Part shown: positions 41,973 through 64,000 of the stretch, piece by piece
Layout: every line of letters begins with the position of its first letter
How positions within the stretch are numbered: position 1 is the stretch's first letter
Assembly: GCA_014905635.1 (NCBI GenBank)
Contig: JABVCE010000028.1
Location: 310,001 to 374,000 of the forward strand
Direction: 5' to 3'
DNA from: Scenedesmus sp. PABB004
Taxonomy: Eukaryota
Length of the DNA stretch: 64,000 bases
Translations under genes and position numbers: made by a program
The notes under the pieces: generated by a model
Told to the model about the DNA's origin: nothing
What the model saw: the letters and a program-made list of their open reading frames with translations, nothing else
The model's database searches: none

Positions 41973-42432
41973 GGCCTCGCCGCCCCGCGCAGGGCGTCGC
42001 CGGCCCGGCTGCGGCGCCGGGGCGGCTCGAGCAGCAGCAGAAGAGATGCGAGGGTCGCCTGCTCGCGCTGCCGTGGACGCCCACGCCGCCTGCCGTGGGC
42101 GCTAGTTCGCAGCTGCTCGATCAAGGCGCCTCTCCGGCGGATCAGGCGCGCCGTCTGGCCAGGGCGGCCCACAGTCCGCCGCCCGCTGCTGCCGCCGCTG
42201 CGCGTGCGCGGCCCCTGCCGCGCCGCACTCGCCGCAGCGGGGGCTCTGTGGCGGAGACTGCTGCTGGGCCGGCTTGGTGGGGGATCGGCGGCGCTGGGTC
42301 TGGGGCGTCACGCCCCGGATGACGAGAGCGCACGACGGCCCTGCTGGGGCACCGATGCGCCCCCCGCCGCGTGAGCGCCGTTGCACCAGGCAGCCCGCAC
42401 ACACAAGAGCTTGGGTCGGCGGCTGCGGCCTT

Positions 42433-42560
42433 GCGCCCCCCGCCTCCGCGCCGCCGCCCTGGCCCGCCCCCGGGCCGCCGTCGTGCGGCGGCGCGGGTCC
42501 CCGACCGGGGGCACCCGTGCCCTCCCGCGCCGGCGCTGCGTCCGCCGCGGGCAGCTCCAT
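42433..42560 (-). pseudogene. Duplicated 5' fragment (about 43 codons) of the CCCH zinc-finger gene
   Basis: MELPAADAAPAREGTGAPGRG...AEAGGA identical to 47918-48045, then unrelated sequence to a stop at 42102. Confidence 0.85.
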
Positions 42561-43519
42561 GCTGATGCGCGGCCCTCGCGAGGCCGGCGGGGCCCCTGGC
42601 TAGCGCTTGGGCCACATGTGGGCGGCGCGTCGCGTGTCGCGCCACGGGCTGGGTCTGCGGCGCCGCGGCAGCGGGCGCGCTCACATGGGCGCGCACGGGC
42701 AGAGGCGCGGGCGGCTGTCCGGCGCCGCGCCTGCCGCAAGGCGCCGTGCGTCGCAGGCCGGCGGCCGGGCACCCCGGCGCGTGTGCCCAGCTGCGGCGGC
42801 TGCGGGCGCTCCGCGGCGGCGCCGCCCGACGTCGTCGACGTCCCCCCGCGCGGCCAGCCTCGTGCGGCAACCTGGAGCGCGCGCGACAGCTGGCCCTCCC
42901 GCGCCGGGCTGGCCCAGATCGTGGCGAGGGCTGGCGACCGCCGGGCCCGCAGCCGGGCGGCCGCCGACCCGCCGCCGAGCGCTCAACCGGGCGGCCTGCG
43001 CAGCGGCGCCCGGCGGGTGACCCGCGCCGCCGCCGGCCGGCAGCGCGCCCGGCGAACGGCCTGGGCTGTGCTGGGGCGAGAGCCGCGGCCACCGTGCGCG
43101 CTCCGCCTGGGGCCAGTCGCGTGGACCGCGACGGTGCCCGCGCGCCGGTGGCGCCGCCAGGTGCGGCCGGTGGCCCCCCACACACGCGCCGACGAGCGCG
43201 CGCGGGTTATCTCGCTCCACCCCGCGGTCCGCGCGCCCGGTGGCTGCGCGCAGGGCCAACGGCCTTCGCCCGCTCGCGCACGCCCCACCAGGCGCGCGCC
43301 CAGGTGCGTCAGGCGGACGTCCCGCCGCCACCAGGCGGGCGCCGACGGCTGGCGGGCGCAGGCGCCGCGCGGCCAGCAACAGGCCCGCGCGCGCCACAAC
43401 GCAGGCTCGGGAGCCGCCTGTTTGGCCTGCGCCGCCTGTTTGGCTCAGCGGCGCGGCCGTCGTGCTGCCCGCAGGTTCAGCACTGTGATCCGGCGATCGC
43501 GCGGCATGGCACCCCGGCG
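42433..43519 (-). repeat. 1.09-kb inverted repeat, left arm (partner 46954-48045)
   Basis: Near-identical reverse complement with a few substitutions and short indels; ends 20 nt before the CBM1 gene ATG. Confidence 0.95.
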
Positions 43520-43539
43520 CTGAGGAGGGCCAGGGGCCA

Positions 43540-46516
43540 ATGGCTCGAAAGCAGCGGCGCCGCGCCGCCGGCACGGGGCCGCAGGCGAGGCTCCCGGCCC
43601 TGCGGCTGGCACGAGCAGCCGTCCTGGTCCTGCTGGCGGCGCTGGCGGGCTGCCTGCCCGCGGCGGCCGGCGACCAGGTGGGGGGAGGCACGGCCGGCGG
43701 CGCGCGGGTGACGCCACCGCTAATCGCGCCGCCGCTGCCCGCGTGCCCGCGCCCCCGCCCTGCCCCGTCGCGCCGCCAACCCCCGCTGCCTCTGCCGCCA
43801 CCTCCGCTGCAGGGCCCGTGGGGCCAGTGCGGCGGCCTGAGCGGCTGCCCAGGCGGGCCGGCGGCCTGCGCCGACGCGGAGTGGCCGGGCGCGGCCTGCC
43901 CCGCCGGCTTCAGCTGCGTCCGCCAGGACCGCTGGTACTGGGGGTGCAGGGAGGACCGCAGCCTGCAGCCGGCGGACGCGGTGCAGCTGCAGCGGTCGCA
44001 GGAGGCCGCCGCGCGCGCGTCGGCGCGGGCTGCGTCGGCCGGCGCCGGCGAGTGGGGCCAGTGCGGCGGCATCAACGGCCCCGGCTGCGGCAGCACGCGC
44101 GCCTGCGGTGACGGCGCGTGGGCGGGCTGCCCGCCGGGCTGGGCCTGCGTTCGGCTGGACGCATTTTACTATCAATGCAAGCCCGGCAGCCAGGCGCCCG
44201 AGGGCTACGTGGCGCCGCCGCTGCCGGCTGCGGAGCCCGCGGCGGCGCCGGAGCCCGCGGCGGCGCCGGAGCCCGCGGCGCGGCCCGCAGGCGCCGCGGT
44301 GGCAGCAGCGGCAGCGGCGGCGGCGGCGGCGCCGCCGCAGCGCGAGCGCGCGCGATCGACCGGCGCGGCGGCGCCGGAGCCGGCGTCGCAGCAGGCGGAC
44401 GTGCGCCCCGCGGCGGCGGCGCAGCCCGCCGCGGTGCCGCGTGGGGCGCCGCAGCAGCCGGTCGTCGCGCCGGCGGCCACGGGTGTGCAGGAGCGCCAGC
44501 AGCAGCAGCGCGGCGCGCCCGCGCCGGCGGCGGCGCTGCCAGACAACGCGGCCGCGGCCGAGGCCCCGGCAGAGCCTGCCGCCGAGCCCGCGCCTGCCGT
44601 CGGCGCCTCCCCCCGCCGGCGCCCGTGTCGCTGGGCCTTGACTTTCCTGGTGAGCGCGCGGCGCCGCGGGCCTGAGCCGCCCGCCACCCCTCCGCGCGCG
44701 CCCCGGGTCGGCCGCCCGGCGCTGAGCTCCGAGCCCCCGCCCCGCAGGCGTGTCGGCGGAGGAGTTCCAGCGCAGCTACGCCGACGGCGCGCTCGCCGCC
44801 GTGTCCGAGGTGTCGGGCGTGTCCGCGGCCAACATCAGCGCGTCGGTCGGCGCGCCGCCCGGCGCCGGCGGCCGCGCGCGCCGGCGCCGGCTGCTGCAGG
44901 GCCCCGCCGCTGCCCCGGGCGGCGTGAGCGTCGCGTACGCGATCGGCGCCGCCGACCCCGCCGCCGCGCTCCGCGGCATCGCCGCCGCGACCGCGAACGG
45001 CGGCGCCGGCTTCTACGCCTCGCTCGCCAGCAACGGCGTGCCGCTGCGCCCCGCGATCCGGGTGAACGGCCGCGAGGCCGTCCCGCTCGTGCCGCAGCCG
45101 CCCGCCGCGCCGCGCTCCGGGCCGGCCGCGCCGCGCGCCGCCGGCTGGCCGGCCTGGAAGCGCGCGGTCGTCGGCGGCGCGGTGTCGCTGGCGGCGCTGC
45201 TCGCGCTCGCCGGCGCGGCGGCGGCGTGCGTGGCGTGCCGGCGCCGCCGGGTCGACCGCGTGCGGCGCAAGGAGGCCGAGATTGTTGCTGCGGACACGCA
45301 CGAGCCGTATCCTCACGACGACGACCGCGGCGGCCCGCACGCGGCGGCCGACCAGCTGCCCGACGCGGCGGCAGGCGCACGCAAGCGCGATGCGGCGGCG
45401 CACGCCGGCAGGTGTGCGCGGCGCTGCGGGCAGGCGGCGCGCGCCGCGCTCGCTCCACTCCGCGCGGCTGGCCGCGCGCGCCTCACGCGCCCGCCGTGCG
45501 CCCCTGCCGCCCCGCCTTGCCAGGGCCGCGCGCGCCGACCAGGCGGCGTCGCCCGACCAGGGCCGCGCCGCGATCGCGGCCGTGGCCGCCCCGGGCGGCG
45601 CGCCGAAGGACGGCAGCACGTTTGCTTCCGCGGCGGCCGCCGGCGCGGCGGCGGCCGCGCTCATGGACCAGGCAGCGCCCCGCGCCGCGGGCGGCGACGC
45701 CGCGACGCGGGCGGGCAGCAGCGGCGGCGCGCGCGCCGGCGCCGGCGCCGGCGCCGCCCTGGCGCAGCGCCCGCCCTGGGACGCCTCCACGACGCCCGGA
45801 CGGCCCCAGGACCCGCCCGCGCGGCGCGAGTCGGGCGCGGGCGTGGAGCCGTGGCGGCCGCCCAAGGCCGCCGAGCCGTGGCGCCCCGCCGCGCCGTGGA
45901 AGCCGCCGTCCGCGCACGCCGAGATCCCGCCGCTGCCCGCGCTGCGCGCGAGCGCCGCCGCCGGCGCCGGCGCCACGCCGGGGCACTCCCGGCGCGGCTC
46001 GGCAGTCGACGACTATCCCTCCACGCCGCCGGTCGGCGGCGACGCGCTCGAGTCGGGCGACGGCTTCGAGACGCCCCGCAGCAGCGCGAGCTACGCGAGC
46101 GCGCGCAGCGGCGGGAGCTTTGTCAGCGCGCGCAGCGGCGCGGGCTCCGACGCGGGCTCAGGTGCGGCGCGGCGCCGCGCCGCCGGCTGCAGCAGGGGGC
46201 GGGGGCCCGCGCGGCCGCGCTCGCGGGCGACCCGGCCCAACCCGACCCGCCGCCGCCGCCGCTGCCGCCGCTGTCGCTGCCGCGCGCAGCTGTCACTGCC
46301 GCGAGCTTCCAGACCGCCGCCAGCCGGTTGAGCCAGGGCAGCAGCGCGGCCAGCTTCCAGACCGCCGGCGGCTCGCTCGCGGGCTCGCAGGCCGGCTCTG
46401 CCGCGGGCTCGGCGCCCGGCTCTGCGGCCGGCGGCAGCGCCAACCTGCCCGCGCTCGCCGCGGCGGCGGCCGCGCCGGGCGCCTCTGGCGAGCGGCTGCC
46501 GGTCGTGCGGCCGTGA
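43540..46516 (+). CDS. Type I membrane protein: signal peptide, two CBM1-like modules, Pro/Ala stalk, SEA-like segment with RRLLQ, one TM helix, Ser-rich cytosolic tail
   Basis: WGQCGG...C...C.RQDRWYWGC and WGQCGG...C...C.RLDAFYYQC; TM AVVGGAVSLAALLALAGAAAACVAC followed by RRRR. Five exons; a 1-nt phase mismatch at intron 44650-44747. Confidence 0.8.
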
Positions 46517-46953
46517 GGGCGTGCGCGTGACGGACGTCAACTCTGTGGTTGGCATTGTGTGATCATTGGCGGTGGCCCCCGTGAGCCACAGCAGTGGGGG
46601 GACGCCAGCCCGGGGTCGCGACAGGAACTTGTGCTGCGCTGTTGACCGCCTGGACCGCGGCGGGCGGCCGCTTGCCCCACTGCCGCCGCCGTGGTGCTGC
46701 TGTGCACCACGCGCCAGCGTTGCGACGAAACGCTGGTGCGTGCAGCGCAGCAGGGCGCCGGCGGCTGGCCGGCGCACCCGAGCGGTGGTTGTTTGATTCG
46801 GCTGGCAACATTCGACCAGGTTGCCACCACACGTCAGGAGATCCGCCACGCACGCCACCAGCAGCGGTCAGCAAGGCGACCAAGCGCGCGGCCGGCCGCC
46901 GGCGGCGCGGGTCACCCACGCCGAGCGCGGCAGCGCAGGCCGCGAGCGCTCGA

Positions 46954-48045
46954 CGCCGGGGTGCCATGCCGCGCGATCGCCGGATCACAGTGCTGAACCT
47001 GCGGGCAGCACGACGGCCGCGCCGCTGAGCCAAACAGGTGGCGCCGCAGGCCGCCCGAGCCTGCGTTGTGCGCGCGGGCCTGTTGCTGGCCGCGCGGCGC
47101 CTGCGCCCGCCAGCCGTCGGCGCCCGCCGTCGGCGCCCGCCTGGTGGCGGCGGGGCGTCCGCCTGACGCGCCTGGGAGCGCGCCTGATGGGGCGTGCGCA
47201 AGCGGGCGAAGGCCGTTGGCCCTGCGCGCAGCCACCGGGCGCGCGGACCGCGGGGTGGAGCGAGATAGCCCGCGCGCGCTCGTCGGCGCGTGTGTGGGGG
47301 CCACCGGCCGCACCTGGCGGCGCCACCGGCGCGCGGGCCCCGTCGCGGTCCGCGCGACTGGCCCCAGGCGGAGCGCGCTCGGTGGCCGCGGCTCTCGCCC
47401 CAGCACAGCCCAGGCCGTCCGCCGGGCGCGCTGCCGGCCGGCGGCGGCGCGGGTCACCCGCCGGGCGCCGCTGCGCAGGCCGCCCGGTTGAGCGCTCGGC
47501 GGCGGGTCGGCGGCCGCCCGGCTGCGGGCCCGGCGGTCCCTAGCCCTCGCCACGATCTGGGCCAGCCCGGCGTGGGAGGGCCAGCTGTCGCGCGCGCTCC
47601 AGGTTGCCGCACGAGGCTGGCCGCGCGGGGGGACGTCGACGACGTCGGGCGGCGCCGCCGCGGAGCGCCCGCAGCCGCCGCAGCTGGGCACACGCGCCGG
47701 GGTGCCCGGCCGCCGGCCTGCGACGCACGGCGCCTTGCGGCAGGCGCGGCGCCGGACAGCCGCCCGCGCCTCTGCCCGTGCGCGCGCGCCCATGTGAGCG
47801 CGCCCGCTGCCGCGGCGCCGCAGACCCAGCCCGTGGCGCGACACGCGACGCGCCGCCCACATGTGGCCCAAGCGCTAGCCAGGGGCCCCGCCGGCCTCGC
47901 GAGGGCCGCGCATCAGCATGGAGCTGCCCGCGGCGGACGCAGCGCCGGCGCGGGAGGGCACGGGTGCCCCCGGTCGGGGACCCGCGCCGCCGCACGACGG
48001 CGGCCCGGGGGCGGGCCAGGGCGGCGGCGCGGAGGCGGGGGGCGC
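46954..48045 (+). repeat. 1.09-kb inverted repeat, right arm (partner 42433-43519)
   Basis: Contains the upstream region and first ~43 codons of the CCCH gene. Confidence 0.95.
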
Positions 48046-49321
48046 CAGTGATTCCCAGGTCGGCATAGAGTTGCAGAACGAGCTCGTTTACGAAGCGGAT
48101 GCCACCTTTTACACGTCCGACGACTTCACCATGTACTACTTCAAGGTCCTCAGGTGCGGGGCGCCGCGGCCCTGCGCCGGCGGCACCGGCGCCGCGGCAG
48201 CCGGCCGCCGCGCCGCTGCTCGCTCGCTCGTCCGCCGACGCGTCGTTGCCCGCTGTTGCGCCCGCGCCCGCAGATGCCCCGAGGTCAGCTCGCGTTCCCT
48301 CGGCGTCCCGCGCGGCCTGCACCCGCTGGCGCCCCGGCCGCCCGCCGAGCGCCGCGGCCGCCGCCGCCCGCCGAGCGCCGCCGCCGCCGCCGCCCGCAGA
48401 AGTGCCCGCACGTGTGGCAGGAGTGCCCCTTCACGCACCACAGCGAGCGTGCGCGGCGCCGCGACCTGCGGCTGTTCACGTACACGCCAGACATGTGCCC
48501 CGACGCGCGCAGCGGCCGCACGTGCCCGCGCGGCGACGCCTGCAGCAGCAGCCACAACACGTTTGAGAGCTGGCTGCACCCCAACCAGTGAGCCGCACGC
48601 GCAGTCACCCCCTTCCCCCCCCCCCCCCCCCACCCCTCGCCTCGCGCGCGGTGTGGCCGCGCGCCGGCTGCCGACCGCCGCGCCGACCGCGCGCCAGGTA
48701 CCGGACCCAGCTGTGCGCCGCGGGCTCGACCTGCGCGCGCCGCATGTGTTTCTTCGCGCACTCGCAGTCCCAGCTGCGCGCGCCCAACCGCGACGCCGAC
48801 CACGCCGCCGCGGCGCGCTCGGCGGCGGTGGTCGCGGGCTCCATCCCCTGCACGAGCAAGCCGGGCGTGTCGGTCGTGGGCGCGCCCTGGCTCAAGGCGC
48901 AGCGCGAGCAGCTGCTCGAGCAGGCGCGGCAGCAGCAGCTCTCGGCGGGAGGCCCGCCGCCGGCGCTGCTGCCGGGCGGCCAGCCGGGGCAGCACGTGCC
49001 CCCGGGCGTGGCGGACCTGGTCACCGCCACGCACATGCTCGCCCTGGGCGCCCGCGGCCCCGCCCCGCCCAGGGTCGGGCGCACCACGTCGGCCGTGCTG
49101 CCGCCGGGCGTGCCGCTCGCTGGCGGCGCGCGCCCCGCGCCGGCGGCGAGCGCCGCGTCGGGCGACCCGCCAGGCCTGGTGCCCGGCCCCCTGCGCACGA
49201 ACAGCGCGCCGGCCGCTGCGTTTGCGCAGCACCGCCAGCCCCACTCCCAGGCGCAGTACGGCGCGCCGCAGCTGCTGGTCGCCCCGCAGCAGCACCTGCA
49301 CTACCCACAGGAGCAGTTTGC

Positions 49322-49688: not shown

Positions 49689-51040
49689 GACGGCAGCTGC
49701 CAGCAGCAGGCCTGGGTGTCGCGGTGCCCGGCTGGCGGCCGGACTTGCCGCGTGCGGAGCGCTGGGGACGTGCTTTGTCCGCCGAACCTGCATGCCGACA
49801 GGACTGCAGCCCGGCTCGTCCATCACTTGAGCACACACACAGTGCTCTCCAGCTGAGCGCGACGCGCACATTCATGCCCGGCTCTTGCCCGGCGTGTTGT
49901 TGTTGCTTTCGCACTGCATGCAGCTAGGGGCGTGGCATGTGTTGGCCGACACCTCCCCCGGTGCGGCGGGCTAGTCATGTGGCGGCAGCTCTGAGCACCG
50001 CCCGCCACTGCGTCGCTGCGGCGCACCTGTGCGGGCTGCTTCTGGTCGTGGCTGATTGAGTGAACGGCGCGCCGCGCCGCTGTTTGACGAGCGTTGACGA
50101 GTGCCTGTTTGATGCCACGGCGGGCCTTCACCGCCCCGCCGTGAGCTTGCGTGCGGTTCACGGCTGCTCTTGTGTCGCCTGCTTGCGGGTCACAGCGTCG
50201 CCTCGTCTGTCTCCGTCCTGTGTCCGTGGTAGGTTGGCGGTTCAACGCTTGCTGCGCACAAATCAACGGCGCGTGTGCGCCCTGGCAGGCCTCACCGAGC
50301 CCGCTGCCCCTGCCGCTCCATCCAATAACAGTGTCGGTCCCGCGGGGGCGGCGGGCACGGCCCGCCAGAGGGCCGCGCGGCGGCGGCGGCCAACGATTGC
50401 TCGCATTGCTGCTGATTGCTCACTGCCTGCGCCGCGCCGGCTGTGCGGATGACGCCGGGGGAGGGGGGAGCGGGAGGGCTCAATGCACGCGTTTCGTGCT
50501 TGTGTTGCTGTCGTCGATCGATGATGATGACTCTCTGCCTCGTGGCCGCGACGGCGCCACCGCTGCCGCTGATTGCGCGCGCGCCGGTGCTCAACGCTGG
50601 TTTGTTTGGTGAGACCACTGTTTCGTGCGGGGGCGGCCCCGCCCGCGGCGCGTGAATTGGTGCGCCGCGCGGGCGGGGCTGCGGGGCGAGTGACGCGTGT
50701 CGGCGCGCGTGGGCCGCCGCTCAAGTGTGTTTTTGCCCGCTCGCGCTCATCTGTTGCCAGTCTGTTGTCCTGTTCGCCACCACCTCCGCGGAGGTTTGGG
50801 AGCCGACACGGTCGGCGACCGGCGTGCGCACAAGCGGTCAACGCGGCGCCGTCATCTCGTCTCCCCGCCGACGAGCCGCCAGCATCCGCAGCGCGCTGGC
50901 CGCCAGCCAGCGCGCGTGCGGGACGACGCAGCAGCGCCCTTCCCGGCGCCGCAGCCCGCCGGCGCGGCAGCGCAAGCAGCACAGCGCCCGGCTCTGCAGC
51001 CCGCCGGCGCGCGATCGGCCGGCGATCAGCGCCTTCCCGC

Positions 51041-54000
51041 ATGCCCCCAGATGAGGAGCGCGCGCGGTGCGTGTGTTTGTGATGAGCGGGGCCACCTCGC
51101 TGCCCGCACACGCTGCGTCCGCCGCCGGGGCGGGCGCCGCCACGCTCGCCGCCGCGCCCGCAGTGCGCCCGCCGCAGGCGGCCTCCGCGCTGCCGGGGAC
51201 CTGCCCGACCCTGTGGCGGGTCGCGGTGGAGGAGCGGATGAGCCCGGTGGAGCGCAGCTCCCCGCCGCGCCGCCGCTTGGCGCCGCCAGCGAGGTGCTGA
51301 GCGGCCGCAGCAGCAGCTCCGGCCTCAGCCTGCACCTCCCGGCCTCGCTGCTGGCGGCCTGGGCGCCGGCGGCGAACAGGGCCGCTCCAGCCAGGGCGGC
51401 CAGCCCTGACCGCCAGGCGCCGCGACGGCTGACGCTGGAGGAGCGCCTCCTGCTGGCGACGGAGCTGCTCAGCGGCGGGGGCGACCTGGATGCCGCGCCG
51501 CCACAGCCCAGCGGCGCGCGCGCGGCGGAGGCGACGGCGGCCGAACGCAGCGCTGAGCTCAGCGCTGCGCTCGAGCGGGCTCCGTCGCCGACTGGCTCGC
51601 CGTTCCGCCCAGGCTGGTTTGATGGCGACGCGTTTGCCCAGCTGAGGCTGCGCTCACAGCCCAGCCTCGCGGGCGGTTGCAGCCCCGACGACCGCCGCAG
51701 CTCGCGCGAGGCGGGCGGCGGCGACGCGGCGGAGGGCCGGCTGCTGCACGACCGCAGCACGCAGGACTCACTGCCGGACGACCCGGACGCGCCGGAGTCC
51801 ACGAGGGGCGACGACGCGTCGCTCGCGGAGCAGCTGAGGGCGGCCGAGGTGAGGCGCGCCCAACACGCTGGCGGGCCGCCGCGCGCCGTGCACGGCGCCA
51901 CGTGGCCGCGCTCGACCGCCCGCGCGCGGCTCACTGGCGCTGCCGCGCTGCGCCGCGTGTGCGTCAGGAGCTGCTGCGCAAGCACGGGCTGCTGGACGCG
52001 TTCCGAGCGCGCGTGTGCGCGGCGCAGGCGACCGACGCAGCGCTTGCGCCCGCGCCCGACGCGGCGCCCAGCTTTGGCGGCTTTCCCGCCCAGCCGCAGC
52101 GCGGCGACAGCCAGCCGAGCGCGCCCGCGCCGCTGCTGGGCTGGCTTGTCCCGCGCCGCACGCCGCGGGGCGGCGCGGCGCCGGCGCGCCCGCGCCCGAC
52201 GCCGGACGCCGCGGCGGCGCCGGTGCGCGGCCCGCGCCCGCTCGTCACGCGCTGGTCTCCGGCCGCTTGCGTGCTGGCGATTGCGTACCTCGCTTCCACG
52301 GCGTACTACTTTTACGTCCGCGTCGCCACCAGCGCCGGCCTGGGCCCGCAGCGCTGGCGCGTGCACGCGCAAGAGGCGCCGCGCGGCGCGCGGTGACAGC
52401 GCACGCGCGCTTGCGCGCGCGCCGGCGCGCGCCGACCGCCGCCGCCACCGCCTCCGCCGCCGGGGCGCAGGTATGGGCTCACCGTGCTGGCCGTGGAGGC
52501 CCTCGGCGTCAGCAGCATGCTGCCGTGCGTGGCGCCGCGGGCCGGGCCGCGGGCCGGGGTGGGCGCAGGCCCATGCCACCGAGGTCCGCGCGCCGCCTGC
52601 CGTGCGCGCCACGCTCCCGCGCCGCCCCTGCCGCCGCGTCGTCCGCCGCCGCCGGCGCGGGTGCCGCAGGTACGCCCTGATGCTGCTGCGCTACACTGCG
52701 GTCAACCCCCAGCGCAGCGAGTGAGACCAGCCTGCGCCGGGCCACGCGCGCGCGCCGCGCGGGCCGGGGCGCGCCCGGGCGCCCCGCCCGAGCTGCAACC
52801 GCCGCCGCCACAGGGCGCCGGCCGGGCCTCAGGCGCTGGAGGCCAAGCCGTTCCACGTGCGCGTGCTCGTCCCATGCTACAAGGCGCGGCCGCCGCCGCA
52901 GCCGCCGGCCTGCCGCCCGCGCGCCTGTGCGACGCGCGCGCGGCTGCTCTCGTCGCCCCTCCCGCCTCCCCTTCCCGCCGACCCTCCTTTGTTTCCTTTA
53001 CCTCCTGTCACCGCCGCCAGGAGGGGCTGGCCATCATCATCGCCACGGTGCGCGCGGCGCTGGACGCGGAGCTGCCGCCGGGCTGCGCCCGCACCGTGTA
53101 CCTCTGCGATGACGGCGCCGCCGAGGACAAGCGCGCCTGGGCGGCGGGCGTGCCGGGCGTCGTGTGAGGCCGCCAGATGCCGCCGCCGCCGCGCGGCGCT
53201 GCGCGCCGTGCTGCGGCGCGCGTGCTGCGCGCGCGCCTCGCGCCCGCGTGCCCCGCGCGCCTCGCGCCTCGCGCGCCTCTCATTCTCCGCCCGCCCGCCC
53301 GGCGCGGCGGCGCAGCTACGTCTCTGGCCGCCCCCGGCGCGCCGGGGAGGTCAACGGCAAGAGCGCAAACCTAAACCACTGCCTCACCAGCGTCATCTAC
53401 CCAGGCGCCGGCGCCGGAGGCCCGCCGAGCGGCCCGGACGGCATCCCGCCCAGCGAGCTCGTGGCCGTGTTTGACGCCGACATGGCGGCGCGGCCCAGTT
53501 CTTCAACCGGGTGCGTGCGCAGCGCCCGCGGCGCGGGGCGCGGGGCCAGGCCGAGGCGCGGCTGCGCCGCGCAGCACGGCGCGCACCCCCACTGCACGGC
53601 GCGCACACCCACCGCCGCCGCGTCTGTGCACCAGGTGCTCGAGGTGATGCGGGACGACGACGTGGCGCTCTGCCTCACGCCCCAGGCGCGCGCACCACTG
53701 GTTTGGCGCGGCCACGCTCCCCCGCCGCCCGCGCGGCTTGAGCTTGCCAAGCCGCGCCCGCCGTGCCGCGCGCCGTCGCTTGCCTTGCTCGCAGTCGTTC
53801 CACAACGTAGACCACAGCAGCGACATCTTCAACCACGCCAACCCGCAGGTGACTGACGGCTGGCTGGCCTTGTGGCTCGCCGGCGCAGCAGCCGTTGCGC
53901 CGGCGACGGCCTCGGTCGTCAGACGCCCGACGCCCCGCCGCCCCGTCCGGGCCCGCCGCCGCGCGCAGTTCTGGGAGCTGGTGCTGCCCGGGCTCGACGC

Positions 54001-57000
54001 GCTCGGATACGTCGCGTGCACGGGCACGAACGTTGTCCTCCGCGCGCGCGCGCTCGCGGCGGTGCGGGCACGCTCCGCCGCCCGCGCAGGCAAGCACACA
54101 GCACGCACCCGCCGGCTTGTCAGTCCCGCACGCCGCCGCCTGCACTGCGCCGCAGGTCGGCTGGTTCCCGACCTGGACCATCACCGAGGTCGGTCGCGCA
54201 GTGCAGCTAGCTGCCCCGGCAGCGCAGCCGCGCCGCGCGCACGCCGCGCCCAACCCCGCCGCCGGCCTCCCGCCCGCCCCCCCCCCCCATCCTCCCTGCT
54301 CCCTTCACACCACCCTCGCTGCCGCCAGGACTACGCGCTGTCGATGCTGCTCAAGGCTCACGGCTTCAAGGGGCGCTACCTGCCTGAGTACCTCGCGGTG
54401 AGCAGAGACCACACTGATGATGTCATTCCGCGGCAGAGCTCAGCGCCGAGGCCCTCGCGGGGCAAGCGGCCGCCCCGCCGCCACCTCCGCGCGCGCCGCG
54501 CCGCCCCGCCGCCGCGCCGCGCCGCCGCGCCGCGCCCGTGCAGGTCGGCGAGGCGCCCGAGGAGGCGCGCGCGGTGATGCGGCAGCGGTCGCGCTGGTGC
54601 AAGGGCCACATGGAGGCCTTCTTTTCGCGCGCCCACTGCCCGCTGCTGCTGCGCGGGCTGGGCCCGCTGCAGCGCGTGCTCTACTTGAACGGCACGTGGG
54701 CCTATTTTTCGACGATCGCAACCAGCGTCACGTTCACGCTTGTGCCCTGCGTCTCGCTTGTCTTGGGCTGGTGCGCGCGCCAAGCACCCTCAACCCACGC
54801 CGCCGCGGCCGCCACGCAGGCGGCGCACGAACGCGGCTGGCGCAGCGCGCGCGGCGGGCCCGGGCGCGCGCGCCTGATGCCGCCCAGGACGCGCACCGCC
54901 CCGCCGCCCCGGACGCCGACGCCGCCGCCGCAGGCACCCGGTGGCGTTCAGCCGGCGCTTCGCGGCCGCGAGCAGCGCCTACCTGGTCTGCGGCGCCGCG
55001 CTCGGCGGCTGGGTGCGCCACCCGCGGCAGAGCCGGGGCATCTGGCTCAGCGGTGTGAGCAACCAGCTCCTGGCCTTCACTTACGCCAAGGCCGTGGTCA
55101 ACGTGCTCCTGTGAGCGGCGCGCCGAGGGCGGCTGGCGGCACACCGCGGCGCGGCGCGGCGCGGCGCGCGGCTCACGGGCGACGCGCCGCGCGCCGCAGC
55201 GCCAAGGCGGGCCTGAAGGCGCGGTCGGGGTTCAAGGCGACCGTCAAGAAGCAGCTCGTGCCGCTCGTGGCGGTCGTCGCGCGTGTCGCCGCGCTCAGCG
55301 CCGCCGCCGGCCGCGCGCTCAGCGCGGCCTGGGCGGGCGCGCGGCCGCCGCGGGCGGCGCCGCGGCGCGCGCGCGGAGCAGCCTCGCGCACCGGCTGTCG
55401 GTGGCCAGCGGGTGCGTGTGGCGGGGCGCGGCTGGCGCGCGTGCGCGGCGGCGGCGCAGCCGCAGCCGGGGCTCATGGCCTAACCGCCACCGCGCGCTCG
55501 CAGGCCGCCCGGCGACGGCGCGCCCAGCCTGGCGCCCAGCGCGGCGCCCGGCGCGGCGCCGGGCGGCAGCAGCCAGCCAGGTGGCGGCGTGGCCCCGCCG
55601 CCGCACCCCGGCGCATGCCGCTCCAGCGGGTGGCCAGGCCTCTTCAGCCCGCGGGCCTCCGCGCTCGCGCCCGGCCGGCCGGACCGGCAGCAGCAGGCGC
55701 CGCTGGGTGCCCAAGCCGGCCGGCAGGCCTCGCCGCAGGGCGAGGCGGGTGGCGGCGTGCGCGGCTCTCGCGCGTCGGCGGGCGCGGCGCCGGCGGCTGG
55801 CCGGCCGCACCATCACTCATCGCTGGCAGGCCACCTGGCGCCGCTGCAGGAGGGCTCAGTGAGCGGCGCGGCGAGTGGCGCCGCCGTCGCGGCGGCGGCG
55901 GTGACGGCCGTGTGCCGCCGCCCGGGGCCGCGCCGGCACCGCGTGCTGGCCGGCGCGGCTGTGCGTGGGCTGCCGCGCAGTGGGCCGCGCTCGACGGCTC
56001 CCTCGACCCCCTCGCCATCGGCCTCGGCCTCGCCATCAGCCTGTGCGCGATCGCGGCGGGCGTGCAGCAGGCGGTCGCCAAGGGCGCCTCGTTCAGCCTC
56101 GCCAGTGCCAGCAGCGTCGCCAAGGCGCGCCCGCACGGCGGCGCGGCGCACGCGCCGTGCGCCCCTCCGCGTCGGCGCGCGCGCCCGCCTGAGCCGCGCC
56201 CCGCTGCTTGCCGTCGCCCTTGTCATGACCTGATCGATCAGGTCTTTTCTACTGGCCGAATGGATGCCTTCATGCTCCTCGCCATGCTCTGGGTGGGCGT
56301 CAACGCCATCCCGCCGAGTGCGCGCGGGGGGCGCGGGGCAGCGCGCTGCCGCGCGCGCCGGCGCCTGCGGGAGGCGCGCTGCCGCGGTGGCACGTGCGCG
56401 CCGCGCGCGACGCCCCCGCCCCCGCCCTCCCGCCCCCGTCCGAGGCAGCCCTGTTCCTCATCAGCTTCTTCAGCAAGGGCCGGCCGCTGCGCTGGGCGGT
56501 CGCGGCCGGGCAGGCGCTCGCCCTGGTGCTCGCGGCAGGTGGGCCGCGCGGGCGCGCCGCACCTGTCTGCACCGCCGCCGGCTGCGCGCTGCGCCGGCGC
56601 GTGGATGCCGCGCACCAACCTGCCGCGCCCGCAGCCGCCATCGGCGCGCTGTGGATGCTCATTCCCGCGGAGCTGGACGGCGCCGCGCTGCGCGGCATGC
56701 TGGGCAGCGCGCTGGCCTTTGTCGACGCCATGCGCAGCGGCCCGGACGCTCTGCCGTCGGCAGCGGCCGCGGCCTTCCCCTGGCTGCGCGTTGGCACCGG
56801 CGGCGGGGACGCCGTGCTGGGCGGATTTTTCGTTGATGCCACGTACGTCAAGCACGGCCCGCCAATGGCCACCGCGCTCTCGCTGCTCGCGTGGAGCGTC
56901 GCGTCCTTCCCGGCCGGCTTCCGGGAGGCGGGCGTGCACGCGCAGGCCCTGGACGCGCTCGTGCACGGCGCGAAGCACCTCATCGCTGCCCACATCACGC

Positions 57001-59086
57001 CCGGCGCGTTCGTCGTCCAGGCGCGCGCGCGCGCGCCGGCCGCGCCCGCGCGCACGCGCTCACCGGCCGCACAGCGTGCCGCCGCCGGCGCGCTCTGGCC
57101 CAGCCCGGCGGCCCCCAACGGGAACCCGGGGCGCAGGTGGGCAACCCTGCCGACTATGCGATTGACTCCGCCACCGGCACCGGCAGCTGGGGCGAGCCGG
57201 ACTCGATGCCGACTGACCGGTGCGCCCACCGCCACGAAGCGCCAGGCTGCACCGGCGCCGCGACCCGGCACGCGGGCTGAGCGCCGGCGCGCGCCGCCCG
57301 CCGCGTGCCGCGTGCGGCAGGGCGGCGCGCGAGGTCACCAACTCGAGCTCCGGCGGCGCCGACGCGCTCGGCGCGGCGCGGCCGCGCGCTCGCGGCCGCC
57401 GCGCACGTGCTGCGCGCCGAGCGCGGCGCGCTGGCCGAGGCCGCGCTCTCGCACGCGCGGCAGCTCTACGCGCTGGCCCTCGCCCCGCAGCTGCAGGGCA
57501 GCTTCTGCGGCGCGGTCGCGCCCTGCGCCGGCACAACACTGCCGCAGGCCGACCCTCGCGGCGGCGCCGCCGCCGCCGCGGGCGCGGGGCGGGGGCGCCG
57601 GCGCCAACGCCCGTGCCCTGGGTTGCGCACCCCAGCGACTCCTGGTTCGACGACCTCGCCTGGGCGGCCGCGTGGCTCCACGTTGCAACAGGTCAGATAA
57701 GGCGCCTCGCGCACCGCTGCAGCCGCACGCGCTCCGCCGCCTGCCGGCGCGCCCACCACGCCGCGCACGGCCGCCGGCCGCCGGCCGCCGCGCCTCCGCA
57801 GGCTCGGCGTCGTACCTGGGCGACGCGGAGAACCACTGGCGCCAGCACCTGGCCCGCGAGGCGTCGCTCGGCGAGGCGGCGGGGTGGTGGCTGCCGCGCG
57901 CGGACAACATCGGACCCGCCGCGGGTGTGCGGGCGGCGCCGTTTGGGGGCGACACCGCCCTGCCGGGCAGCAGATGCCAGGGGTCATCCAGAAAGCCTGC
58001 CCCCCTCCTCCGCCCCGCCCGCAGGTGTGCTGCTCATGCAGCTCCTGCCGGACGCGCCGCGCCACCGCGAGCTGCCGGACGCGATGCTGCGCGGCTGGAT
58101 GACCGGCCGGGTGAGCGCGCGGGCGGGCCGCGCCGCGCCGCGCCGCGCGGCCGGCCGCCGGCGCGCAGCGTGCGTGCGTGCGAGCCGCGCCCCCACCTCC
58201 GCCGCCGCCAACCCCCGCCGCCGCCGCCGCGCCCGCAGAACAACTGGACCGCCGGCATCACGCGCCCGACGCCGCGCGGCTTCCTGTGGACGCCGTCGGG
58301 CGCGCCCGCGCACACGGTGGCCGCCGCGGGCATGCTGGCCATGCAGTGGGCGGCGGCGGCGCCCAGCGAGCGCGGCGGGCTGCGGTGGCGCGCCGTGCAC
58401 GGAGCGTGCAGTGCTTCGCGATGCGGCAGGTGCGGCGGGCGGCCAGGCGGGCGGCCCCCAGCGGCCAGTGAGCGCGCACGGCTGCGGAGACCGTGCGACG
58501 TGCGGCGCGCGACGGCATGTCGGCGCCGCCCGCCTCGCAGCTGGCCTCCCTGGTGGGCGGCGCCATGGGCGACGGCAGCAGCTTCATGGTTGGCCACGGC
58601 CCCTCGCCACCTCGGCGCCCGCACCACCGCCAGGCCAGCTGCCCCGCGGACGGCAGCGCGTGCACTGTCACGAGCGCGCTGCTGACCAGTCTGCCCAACC
58701 CGCACCAGCTCACAGGCAAGTCCACCGCCCACCCAGGAGGCCTCTCAGCAGCCGCGGCGCCGGCAGCTGAGGGCCCGCACGCCCCCGCCGCGCGCAGGCG
58801 CGCTGGTCGCCGGCCCTGCTGCGGACGATGGCTTCGCCGATGAGCGCGCCAACACCGAGCAGTCCGGCATCAGCCTCGTCGGCAACGCCTGGCTCGTCGG
58901 ACTCCTGGCCGGCCTGCTCGATCGCGGCATCACGGCGGCGCGGTGCCAGGGCGGCCAGGGTGCGGGCGCCGGCGGCACAGCGCCTCCGCCGGCGCGCGCT
59001 GGCTGGCCCCGACCTCGAGCCGAGCCCCGCCGCCGCCCTGCGCAGGGCTGCTGCAGAGCGTGATGAGCTCGAGCTTTGCGCCCTGA
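51041..59086 (+). CDS. Processive GT2 beta-glucan (cellulose synthase-like) synthase fused to a C-terminal degenerate GH9 domain; about 25 exons
   Basis: GT2: VPCYK|E, YLCDDG, NGKSANLN, FDAD, LTPQ|SF, CTGTN, ITE|D, QRSRW, FKATVK. GH9: ALAFVDAMRSG, GGFF...VKHGPPMA, VVQ|VG, WGEPDSM, DDLAWAAAWL, TPRG, SFMVGHG, PHHR, NPHQLT|GALVAGP. Stop at 59084-59086. About 4 apparent indel slips. Confidence 0.8.
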
Positions 59087-59227: not shown

Positions 59228-62200
59228 TCACAGCCGCAGGCGGAAGCCGAACCGCGCCAGCAGGTGCGCCTGCACGCCCGCAGCGAGCGCGGCCGCGGAG
59301 GCGGCGAAGCGCGGGCGCGCCGCGCCCGCGGCCGCGGACGCGCGCAGCAGGCGCTGCACGGCCCCCAGGTCCGCATCCGCGCGCGCCGCCGCCCACTGCG
59401 CCAGATACTCAGCAAGCACAGCCAGCTTGCGCGCGGCGCCGCCGGCGTCGTCGCAGCCGCCACCGGCCTCGTCGCCGCCGCCCACGGGCGCGAGCGCGTC
59501 CAGCGCCGCGCTCAGCGCCGCCAGGACGTTGGCGAGCGGCTCGTCGGCAAAGAGGGTCTGCTGCGCAGCGAGGCGGCCGCCAGGCACCGCCGCGCGGGCC
59601 TGCTGCTCCGTCCGCCCGCGCGCCCCCGCCGCGCCGCCTGGGCCCGCCGCCGCCGCGGCCAGCCCGCCGCTCGCCGGCGCGGCGCTCGGCGGCAGCCGCC
59701 GCGGCTTGCCGACCAGCGCGGCGCGCAGCTCGCGCTGCAGCTCCGCCGGCAGCTCAGCGAGCACGGCGGGATCGACCTGGTGGAGGTGGGTCAGCACCTC
59801 CGGGCGCTGGGGCAGCCTGTGCACGCGCGCCGGCAGCGAGCGGGCAGGGAGCGGGCAGCGGGCGCCGCCCGACGTGAGCGCGCTGCGCACGCGCAGGTCG
59901 GGGCGCGTGCGCATGCCGCGGCCGCCGCCGCCGCGGCCCAGCCCGGTCAGCCCCACTCACCGCGTGCTCGGCGCACCCTGCCGGCCTCGCTTGTCGCCCA
60001 CGAGCGCCAGGCTGGTGCCGTAGCTGCTAAACTGCCGCTGCTGCTGCGCCTTGCCGGCAGGCCGCCGGCCGGCGCCCACCGCGGCTGCAGGCCTGCCCCT
60101 GATGCCGCCGCCGTGCTGCACTGGCGGCTGCCGCTGCTGCGGCCGCCGGCTGCCGCGGTCGCCGCCCGGTGAGGCGTTGGCGCGGCCGGCGCCCGCTGCA
60201 CCAGCTGCGCCCGCCGGGCGCTGCTGCTGCTGCTGCTGCTGCTGGTGGTACTCAGCCTCCAACTCCTTCCGGACCGATGGCGGCAGCTCCGCCAGCACGT
60301 CCGGGTCGAGCTGCGACAGCGGCGGCAGCGCCGCGACGGGCGCGGCGGCGCCGGCAGCCCGCCAGCATCGAAGAGAGCCCGCTTGGCGGGCGGGCTGCCT
60401 CCGGCCGCGGCGCCCGCCAGCGCGGGGTCGGTCTCTGGCGGCGAGGCGTCCAGCAGGTCCGCCAGCATGAGCACGTCTGCCTGCGAGGGCGACTGCCGCG
60501 GCGAGGCAGCGCCGGCGGGGCTGCTGGCGCCGGCCGGGCTGCCGCCGGCCGCCGCGAGGTGCGCGGGCAGCGCCGCCCGCGCCTGCTCCTCCAGCTGCTG
60601 CTGCCGGGCCGCCAGCAGGCCCTCCAGCGTGCGCTGGTCGCCCACAGCGGCGGGGCTGGCGCCGGCGGCCCGGCGGCGCTTGGCAGGCGTGCCGGCCTCG
60701 CCGCCCGCCGCGGCCTCGCCCGAGCTGGCGGGGCGCTTGCCCAGCTGCCGCTGCTCGTCGCCGCCCTCGGCATTATTCTCGCCGGCCGCCTGCTCGACGG
60801 TCCCTGCGCCCTGCTGCTCCTGCTGCTGCTTATTTGACTCCTGCTGCCCCACCAGCCAGCCCGACTGCTTCTGCAGCGCCGTCAGCCACGCGGGCTGGCG
60901 GTCGGGGTTGAACACGCCGTGCTTGGCGGGCGCCACCTGGCGCGGCGGCGGCACATGAGGGCGTGCTCGTGTGCCGCTGCGCTGTGCGGAGGCGCCGCCA
61001 GTGCAGGGGCCCCCGCGCCGCACCTTGGCTGGCGCCGGACCGGAGGGGCGCGCCGAGAGCGAGGCGGCGTCGGAGTCGAGCTTCGACACCTGCGGCGGCC
61101 GGCCACGGCGTGTCGGGCGGGCCTCAGCGCCCGCGCTCACTCGGCCTGCCGCCCGGCTCGCTGCCGAGGGCCGCCGCGCCATGCTGGGCAGGGCCGGGCC
61201 GGGCCGGCAGCAACGCCCAAGGCGCACCGTGATGCCGACGCCGCGGATCTCCGGCGCCGGGATGCGCATGGCAGCGAGCAGCCCCGCCGCCTGGTCGTAC
61301 AGCTCGCCTGCGCGCGGAGCAACAGCAGCGGCGCGGCGGTGAGGCAGGGAAGCCCCGCGCGCGCGCGCCGCTGGGGCGGCAGCGCGGGCAGCGCGCCGCG
61401 CAGCGCGCGCGCCGCCGCACCCGCGCCGGCGACGAACCGCCCGAGCGTGACGCTGCGGCTGAGGTTGTCGCACACGCCGTGCCCCAGGAACTTGGCGGGC
61501 TCCGGCGCGCCCGCCTGGCGGCGCTTGATCTTGAGCGTGATGCACCGCCCCCGCACGCCGCCGCCGGCGAGGCGCGCCGCGACCTCGCCGCACAGCTCCT
61601 GCGCGCGGGCGCGGGCGCGCGGGGCGGGGCGGGGCGGGGCGCGCCGCGGGCTGGGCGGCCGCGCGCGTGTGCGCCGGCACGGGCCCCGGGCGGGAGGCCT
61701 CCTCGAGAGGGGGCTGCTTGGCGGCGGGCGGGCCGCACAGCCGCGCCGCCGCCGCGGCGCGCGTGCCTTGAGAAAGGCCTGTGCGTCGGCGTCTGCCGCG
61801 AAGCGCACGCCCCAGTTGACCTCCGCGCCGACGCTGCGCCGCGCGCGCGGCGGCTCGACGCGCCGCTCGTCCAGCCCGTGCGCGTGCGCCCACAGCGACG
61901 CGCCCGTCTGCGCGCCCAGGCGGCGCATCAGCACCTCCTTGCTGCTGCTCCACACCTGCGCGCCGCGCGCGGGCGGGCGCGGCGGCGCGGCGCGTCGCGG
62001 CGCGCCCGCGTGCTGGCCGGCGGCCCGACCGCGCCTGCCTGGCCTTGGCCCGCCGGCCTGCGCGCCTGCCAGCTCCCTGCCGCCGCGGTGGCGGGCGCAC
62101 CTGGCGCACGTGCGTGATGCCGAGCTCAGCGAGCTTGCCCTTGAGACTGTAGCCGACGCCAGGCAGCTCCCCGACCTCCAGGTCGCCCAGCACCTGGCGC

Positions 62201-64000
62201 GGCGGCGCAGCGCGCGCGGGAGGCTCGCCCGCGCCCGGAGCACGCAGGGGGCCGCGCCAGTGCGGCGGCGGGGAGGCGGCGCGCACCTGGCGCGCCTCCC
62301 CGCCCGCGGCGATCAAGGCCTGGCCGTTGGGCTTGGCCGCCTTGGTGGCGAGGCGGGCGAGGAGCATGTTGGGGCCGATGCCTGCGCCGCGGGCGGCCGG
62401 CGGCCGGCGCGCTGGCCCCCATCCGTCGGCGGCGGCGCTGCTAGCTCGGGGGGGGGGGGGGGACGCCGCGCACCCGCGCTGGCGGTGCACTGCGTGGCGG
62501 CGCGGATCTCCTCCCGGATGGCCGCGACGTACGCGTGCGGGTCCTGCGCGGCACCGGCGCGGCGCGGCACAGGGTGGGGCGTGCTCCGCGACTGCGAGCG
62601 CAGCCCGCGCCGCCGCTGCCAGAGCGCGGCGCGGCGCGGCACGGGGCGCGGGGTTCAGGCAGGCCGCAGGCGCCGCGCCTGGGTGAGGCCTGTGATGTCC
62701 AGGAACGCCTCGTCGCAGGAGAGGGGCGCGACCAGCGGCGTGGCGCGCAGCAGGATGCGGTACACCTGTGTGTGTGTGTGGGGGGGGGGGCGGCAGCAGT
62801 GAGCACGAGTTGTTGACCGGCGGCGCCGCGGGCGCGGCCAGCACGCACAGCGGTTCAAGCGCCCTACAACCCCCGTGCGCGCGCGGAGGCCCCACCTGCT
62901 CGGAGACCTCCTCGTACTTTTCGAATTCGTACGGCACCACGAGCAGCCCCGGGCACGCGGCCTTGGCGGCGGCCATGAACATGCCCGCCCGGATGCCGCA
63001 GCGCCGCGCCTCGTAGTTGGCGCTCGACACCTCGCCGCTGCCCGCCGCCGACGCGGAGTGGCACACCGCGAGCGGCTTGCCTGCGCGCGGCGGCGAGGAG
63101 GGGAGGGGGCGGGTGCGGGGCGTGGAAGCGACGCGGCTCAGCGCAGGCGCGGCGTGGCGCAGCGACGAGGGCTGGCGCCGCGCGGCGCGGCGGGCGGCGG
63201 GGGCCGCCGCGCACCCGCAAACTCGGGGCGCCCCACCGCCGCCACGGCGGCAAAGAAGCAGTCCATGTCGATGTGGACCACCACACGCTCGCCGCCGGCG
63301 CCGCGCGGGCCCGCCGCCGCCGCGGGGCGCCGCTGCGCCTGCGCGCGCTGCGCCTGCGCGTGCTGCGCGTGCTGCTGCTGCTGCGGCGCCTCTGCCATGA
63401 GCGCCTCGATGCGCGCCTTCCAGCTGCCGATGAAGTGCAGCCGCGACGACCTGCGCGGCGGCCGCAGCACGGCGCGCGCGCGCGCGCGTCGAGGGCGCAG
63501 GGCGAGCAGGCGGGCCCGGGGCGGGGAGGAGGAGGAGGCAACTGCGCTCGCGCCAGCGCCGGCGGCGGCGGGCGCGGCGGGCGGTCGCCGAGGCGCCCCG
63601 CCCCGCCCCGCCTCACCTGAAGAAGCTGCCCATGAAGCCCTGGGGGTCGTCCGCGGTGGAGCGCGGCGGGCCCTTGAGCAGGTCACACGCCGCGCGCAGC
63701 CCCGCCGCGGTCGCGCGCGCCGCCTGCAGGGACGCCTGCTCCGGCTGCGGCGGCGGCGCCTGCTGCGCCGCCTGCTGCGGCTGCGGCGGCGCCGCCTGCT
63801 GCGGCTGCAGCGGCGGCGCCTGCTGCGGCTGCGGCGCCGGCTGCTGCGGCTCCAGCTCAGCCTCCCCCGCCGACTGCTCCTGCAGCCCCTGCCCCCGCTG
63901 CTCGCGCTCTGGCTGCTGCCCCTGCTGCCCCTGCTGCTGCTCCTGCTGCTGCTGCCCCTGCTGCTGCTGCGCCTGCTGCTGCCGCTGCCCGAGCGCGGGG
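59228..64000 (-). CDS. REV1: Y-family translesion deoxycytidyl transferase REV1; 5' end lies outside the window
   Basis: SRLHFIGSWK, VVHIDMDCFF, EVSSANYEARRCGIRAGM, SCDEAFLD, GIGPNMLLARLAT, LPGVG, RSVGAEVNWGVRF, KFLGHGVCD; two UBM-like DPxVLAELP motifs. Confidence 0.95.

Follow-up and report, generated by a model that had tools for sequence, protein, structure and literature searches.

Can a cellulase-family domain fused to a putative cellulose synthase still cut, and, if it cannot, what would it be kept for? The question is raised by a GT2-GH9 fusion gene of Scenedesmus sp. PABB004 (genome G000; assembly 40 Mb, 80 contigs; ~79% GC), an intron-rich gene on the plus strand at ~50.7 to 59.1 kb of the window, which here means the whole stretch of 64,000 nucleotides analysed (G000:C22:310001-374000). 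Its synthase half has intact catalytic motifs, its GH9 half has lost the catalytic triad, and the loss of the general-acid Glu extends across the fusion family, in which core residues of the barrel are kept. With a probability of about 0.58, we read the product as a synthase that makes a beta-glycan, probably cellulose, processively and whose dead GH9 barrel would serve as a non-hydrolytic structural partner at the channel exit. The closest named relatives are Sphaeropleales, namely Monoraphidium minutum (P0001, P0141), Flechtneria rotunda (P0138, P0288) and Scenedesmus sp. NREL 46B-D3 (P0146). The gene is organized as follows:

50697..51848, plus strand: 5' coding region for a low-complexity cytosolic N-terminus (open frame, GT donor at 51849, resemblance to the P0001 N-terminus by eye; start codon unplaced)
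51968..55342, plus strand: GT2 synthase exons with the N-terminal and following membrane helices (motif reading and spliced alignment; one frameshift near 53495)
54544..54768, plus strand: GT2 exon (Pfam Cellulose_synt, E 1.5e-5)
55343..55980, plus strand: stretch without a model, following the gating loop and preceding the last three helices (low-complexity loop, intron or both)
55981..56696, plus strand: last three predicted membrane helices (hydropathy, exon map)
56697..58958, plus strand: intron-split GH9 domain of (alpha/alpha)6 type, predicted pseudo-enzyme (homology searches; frameshifts near 57382 and 58360-58390, probably also 57590)
56820..56855, plus strand: degenerate base loop GGFFVDATYVKH (D55V, A56D, D58T)
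57649..57675, plus strand: structural motif DDLAWAAAW, retained
58619..58630, plus strand: PHHR motif (H376, R378), retained in the window copy and lost in most of the fusion family
58839..58889, plus strand: degenerate acid loop DERANTEQSGISLVGNA (E424G, Y420T, Y429G)
59046..59086, plus strand: probable last exon and stop codon (sequence reading; proposed from the similar P0141 C-terminus)

The loss of catalytic residues was apparent when the window GH9 was aligned without gaps to solved GH9 enzymes, with residues numbered after the T. fusca Cel9A chain: the substitutions are D55V, D58T and E424G. The base loop GGFFVDATYVKH, with codons for Val at 56832, Asp at 56835 and Thr at 56841, aligned gap-free to GGWYDAGDHVKF of PDB 3wc3/8ihx (phmmer, E 1.4e-7). 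In the acid loop DERANTEQSGISLVGNA, the codon at 58866 places a Gly at the general-acid position; this exon aligned ungapped, although weakly (E 0.1-0.7), to 1ia6, 4dod, 7unp and 7v0i, and the column of the window Gly is occupied by Gln in 7v0i and by Glu in its twin 7unp. Pfam GH9 (PF00759) matched both window exons (E 1.1e-9 and 6.6e-4), and family homology spans the whole domain. Misalignment was rejected as the source of the triad loss by these gap-free alignments and by the register of the orthologue P0288, and the substitutions are point changes within in-frame exons, independent of the frameshifts discussed below. The first-pass annotation had read all three catalytic carboxylates as replaced and had proposed alignment to active GH9 enzymes as a check; once made, this alignment upheld the reading. 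Both the DAGD base motif (VDAT instead) and the general-acid Glu expected of an active endoglucanase are thus absent. GH9 catalysis requires the region III Glu, according to the part of PMC6032398 consulted, where the roles of the residues corresponding to D55, D58 and E424 are described. The sequence comparisons support a catalytically dead pseudo-enzyme domain.

To what extent is this loss shared? A GT2-core search with P0004 as query returned 140 matches, and PF00759 was found on 90 of the 120 listed. Named fusion members came from Trebouxiophyceae, Chlorophyceae and Bryopsidales, and complete GT2-GH9 open reading frames were present in transcript sets. After addition of further search matches and of models from the same genome, 161 of 164 sequences were aligned, of which 133 remained after filtering at 30% gaps (the duplicate P0138 being removed), giving 85 fusion-type GH9 domains, six of them so assigned by a membrane tail or a degenerate GT2. 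The general-acid Glu was absent from 75 of these domains, the triad was intact in 9 and one had a gap; the acid column was anchored by the following V-x-x-x-x-N motif. Replacements in the 75 dead domains were Arg (36), Trp (8), Ala and Val (6 each), Thr (5), Gly (4) and others (10). D55 persisted in 15 of them, D58 in 6 and neither Asp in 57, counts that are approximate, as are those at W313-Y318, because hmmalign misplaced residues in insertion-bearing loops (many trebouxiophyte base loops and the W313 region of the window). Among stand-alone GH9 controls, the triad was intact in 41/47. The same division was found within the Scenedesmus genome, where the Glu is missing from 4/4 GT2-GH9 fusions found (the window gene, L021 on C67, L022 on C35 and L023 on C1) and retained, with intact motifs, in the stand-alone GH9 models (7 loci modelled, one partial). 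These data support loss of the acid Glu as a family-wide trait rather than a quirk of the window copy, so that the pseudo-enzyme proposed from a single sequence now extends to most of a family.

The triad-intact fusions comprise a Bryopsidales-containing clade and two trebouxiophyte proteins. GT2 and GH9 trees were largely congruent by eye, and monophyly of the fused GH9 domains was not rejected (p=0.26). Strongly supported branches force at least two changes at the acid position and a quick tree needs four; repeated independent loss is not claimed here, a single origin not being rejected (approximately unbiased test, p=0.07). Within the Bryopsidales-containing clade, the Bryopsis protein P0254 combines a degenerate GT2 lacking QxxRW with an intact GH9 triad, a reciprocal decay, while both halves of P0237 are degenerate; P0237 and P0245 carry the Glu-to-Arg change inside this otherwise active clade. 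Among the Scenedesmus paralogues, DDGG replaces DAGD in L022 and L023, L021 has one GT2 frameshift, and two nearly identical intact stand-alone GH9 genes lie in tandem at G000:C67:279781-283988. A word-index protein search with the first window GH9 exon gave no matches, and none of 599 pattern matches in a metagenome locus scan was confirmed.

The base loop has a history of its own. Among 24 close orthologue fragments, assigned to the window subfamily by eye, D55 occurs in none and D58 in 18; five of the six fragments without D58 have an Asp at +1, like the window, and possibly represent one lineage. This pattern suggests that the base loop of the subfamily needs one carboxylate. The general acid is gone in all five full-length members. 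Outside the subfamily, the GH9 fragments P0154, P0162 and P0165 have a VDHD base loop, another loss of the first Asp with a shifted Asp.

The synthase half shows no such erosion. Its catalytic motifs (PCYKE, CDDG, KSAN, DAD, TED and QRSRW) and a gating-loop-like FKATVK motif are intact, so that the D, DxD, TED and QxxRW signatures of processive GT2 enzymes are found together with flanking membrane helices, and TED and QxxRW are intact in 79/79 fusions checked. On sequence grounds, it is probably a BcsA/CesA-like processive beta-glycan synthase, with cellulose as the predicted product. GT2, membrane helices and GH9 share one frame, and the window protein groups with known fusions in trees. The final membrane helix and the start of GH9 lie within a single exon (56635-57020), with practically no linker between them, and the fusion is therefore not a gene-model accident. 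When frameshifts were read through with X, the spliced model matched the complete transcript-derived orthologue P0288 end to end and in the same register (40% over 1317 columns). The spliced aligner handled 55306-55980 as an intron, and relatives carry long inserts at the same place. All 25 introns modelled are GT-AG or GC-AG; GC donors occur in 6/25 (51968-58958), a high share that is also common in paralogues. By analogy with plant CesA topology, and from the three helices that hydropathy predicts after the gating-loop-like motif, the GH9 barrel would be extracellular and adjacent to the channel exit. The density of N-glycan sequons agrees with this placement, at 0.95 per 100 aa for GH9 against 0.38 for the cytosolic core of GT2.

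Is the dead domain still under constraint? The GH9/GT2 distance ratio had a median of 2.2 among dead pairs (n = 22) and of 2.07 among live pairs (n = 5; Mann-Whitney p=0.55), which, with hand-picked, few and non-independent pairs, is to be read as no acceleration and not as a direct measure of selection. For L022, whose orthologue cluster has 19 members, identity to the orthologue P0104 is 94% in GH9 and in GT2 alike, and GC content at third codon positions (GC3) is 0.93 in the window GH9 exons vs 0.94 in the GT2 exons, without stops. The pattern of divergence is consistent with purifying selection at the protein level. The first-pass annotation had proposed that the domain is selected and, as a check, a search of orthologues for its substitutions: catalytic loss does recur in orthologues, and selection holds in this protein-level sense, not as a measured pressure. 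Compared with the homologous active endoglucanases T. fusca Cel9A and N. takasagoensis 1ks8, the window GH9 retains 48/68 columns conserved in stand-alone GH9; D55, D58, E424 and most minus-side aromatics are replaced.

Conservation is unevenly spread over the cleft, whose listed positions, apart from the His/Arg of region II, we take to be substrate-binding. For this His/Arg pair, a role in substrate binding is given in the consulted part of PMC6032398. The window retains W128, W256, D261, H376, R378 and R417, and has lost H125, W260, W313, R317, Y318, Y420 and Y429, with Y206 changed to His; the plus-side Trp128, His376 and Arg378 are thus still there, most minus-side aromatics being gone. 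Across the 75 dead domains, retention is 100% for R417, 95% for W128, 84% for Y206, 65% for R378, 5% for H125 and 4% for H376, and the retained positions are mostly core (Gly, helix Ala, D214, the W218 region and Cys pairs). An intact six-subsite groove is not what this sequence encodes, although a remnant glucan-binding surface is possible. DDLAWAAAW, PHHR and GALVAGP, which had been listed as structural and substrate-contact motifs, are all present, but DDLAW and GALVAGP are structural and the substrate contacts had been overstated. A glucan-binding guide, one of the roles first proposed, is hence conjectural, given the loss of most minus-subsite aromatics and the near absence of H125 and H376 from the dead domains; a structural organiser is likelier.

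Several observations weigh against our interpretation of a retained structural partner. Thirty of the 120 GT2 matches listed lack GH9 annotation, some being fragments, and no GH9 was detected within the 9.5 kb examined at L024 and L025, two GT2 paralogues in the same genome, so that some synthases seem able to do without the domain. Conservation of the cleft is poor among the dead domains, the rate comparison has the weakness of its pairs, and the window gene itself contains three to four frameshifts, which the first-pass annotation overlooked: the aligner demanded three (near 53495, 57382 and 58360-58390), and the P0288 match implies a probable fourth near 57590. The window copy could then be a decaying pseudogene, with real frameshifts and a loss of both Asp that is partly decay. 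The frequency of breaks speaks for this (3 per 1061 aligned codons, against 2 per 7331 codons in a set of 12 control genes of this genome; Fisher p=0.017), as do the likely fourth break and the absence from the window of the D58 present in 18/24 orthologue fragments. Against it, every break could be explained if one or two bases had been dropped from a G/C run, the sites ranking at the 86th-99th percentile of exonic GC, and the neighbouring REV1-like gene also has an apparent frame switch near 60345; moreover, there are no stop codons, all introns have GT/GC-AG borders, GC3 is undiminished, the window terminal branch (0.55) equals the tree median, and loss of D58 with a new Asp at +1 is shared with five orthologue fragments. 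A frameshift-free second copy in G000 was ruled out, only one of 5 matches being 100% identical. The frameshifts are probably assembly errors, and decay of the window copy seems improbable to us; the family conclusion, which does not depend on this copy, would hold even if they were real.

Two other explanations concern the barrel rather than the copy. It might be kept only for folding or trafficking of the synthase, entrenched without any role on glucan or fibrils, as would fit the virtually linker-free junction and a conserved set that is mostly core while the cleft aromatics drift. Synthases of the same subfamily without detected GH9 fit this poorly, as do the conservation of R417, W128 and Y206 at or near the cleft and the frequency of Arg at the acid position (36/75), and we consider it unlikely. 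Still more doubtful, and very improbable in our view, is a GH9 that remains catalytic through shifted or new chemistry, for instance the VDAT Asp with another acid such as the Glu at -3 from the Gly, or that acts on a different polymer. The persistence of a base-loop carboxylate (D58 in 18/24 fragments, Asp at +1 in five of the other six and in the window) speaks for it; yet twelve different residues occupy the acid column across 75 domains, unlike a catalytic site, both Asp are absent in 57/75, the -3 Glu is missing from the orthologues P0001, P0141, P0288 and L021, and the region III Glu is needed for catalysis in GH9 (PMC6032398, in the part consulted).

If the barrel is indeed a non-hydrolytic structural partner, the GT2 half would make and secrete a beta-1,4-glycan, and the last membrane helix, leading straight into the dead GH9 domain, would hold it at the membrane beside the exit. 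From there, the barrel may space or hold neighbouring synthases and may steady the emerging chain, at most via what is left of the cleft on its plus side (W128, R378, R417). Any cutting would be left to the free GH9 enzymes of the same genome.

How does this arrangement compare with known systems? Among solved synthases, BcsA is the best match for the GT2 of family member P0114, whose fused GH9 has kept its triad (E 2e-23 for the GT2 match). BcsB is the non-catalytic external partner of BcsA, and the first-pass annotation had likened the GH9 domain to it; the analogy is a purely functional one: BcsB domains had no Pfam match on P0001, P0004, P0018 or four window exons scanned and none appeared in PDB searches, the external module of the algal synthase being a GH9 barrel. 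KORRIGAN also places a GH9 barrel beside a synthase, as part of the plant cellulose synthase complex, but it is encoded separately, has a membrane anchor of its own and keeps its triad, whereas the algal domain is fused and predicted to be dead. A catalytic-site mutant of KORRIGAN still complemented, pointing to a catalysis-independent component, as summarized in the part of a review consulted (PMC11062476). Tunicate CesA likewise joins a GT2 to a C-terminal cellulase-family domain without its catalytic Asp, with a free intact hydrolase encoded elsewhere; here the family is GH6, and the domain is described as likely functionless in the consulted part of PMC10334666, whereas constraint on the algal GH9 points to function. 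By analogy, both systems appear closer precedents than BcsB.

The fusion itself is already published. Four cellulose-synthase-like/GH9 fusions were reported in Coccomyxa subellipsoidea, their GH9 parts being counted as cellulase domains in the portion of the source consulted (Blanc et al. 2012, PMC3446292). They have the architecture of the window gene, and Coccomyxa proteins fall within the retrieved family, which extends past Coccomyxa to Trebouxiophyceae, Chlorophyceae and Bryopsidales; yet the triad is absent in 4/4 Coccomyxa fusion proteins of the present set. Full-text searches turned up no paper reporting that the GH9 part of algal fusions has lost its catalytic residues, subscription papers and the supplements of PMC3446292 being outside their scope, and the family-wide loss is apparently undescribed in the literature searched. 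A further paper, PMC10916037, concerns mannanase in the part consulted.

The surroundings of the fusion gene include an inverted repeat of ~1.1 kb (arms 42430-43524 and 46949-48048, 96-99% identical), the only one of 14 matches in G000 to reach this identity. A CCCH zinc-finger gene (Pfam E 3e-5 at 48400-48588) has its 5' end within the repeat, which may have arisen when a gene was recently duplicated in inverted orientation; with one single-base indel, the arms were uninformative on the rate of assembly indels. Between them, a plus-strand gene (43540-46530) combines a signal-like start, a pair of cysteine modules resembling CBM1 (Pfam CBM_1, E 4.9e-4 and 0.44) and a later hydrophobic segment, and could encode a surface cellulose-binding protein ~5 kb from the synthase. 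The REV1-like Y-family polymerase whose frame switch is noted above (59230-64000, minus strand; IMS, IMS_C and UBM matches) ends ~150 bases from the synthase stop.

Why cellulases accompany cellulose synthases is described as an open question in the parts of PMC10334666 and PMC11062476 consulted. With live and dead natural versions of the same fused domain, catalytic and structural roles become separable by domain swaps. More speculatively, and as a proposal that we consider tentative and rather doubtful, the core green-algal cellulose synthase may be a one-chain machine. The dead cellulase at its channel exit would be the module responsible for assembly, arranging synthases in linear terminal complexes and so determining how large the fibrils become. 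A cellulase fold would in that case have been recruited for structure by convergence in tunicates (dead GH6), plants (KORRIGAN) and chlorophytes (dead GH9), and the frequent Glu-to-Arg swap would retune the cleft. Database labels such as 'cellulase' are probably wrong on many fusion proteins, and the family indicates which enzymes are likely to make wall polymers in Scenedesmus, Chlorella and lichen algae.

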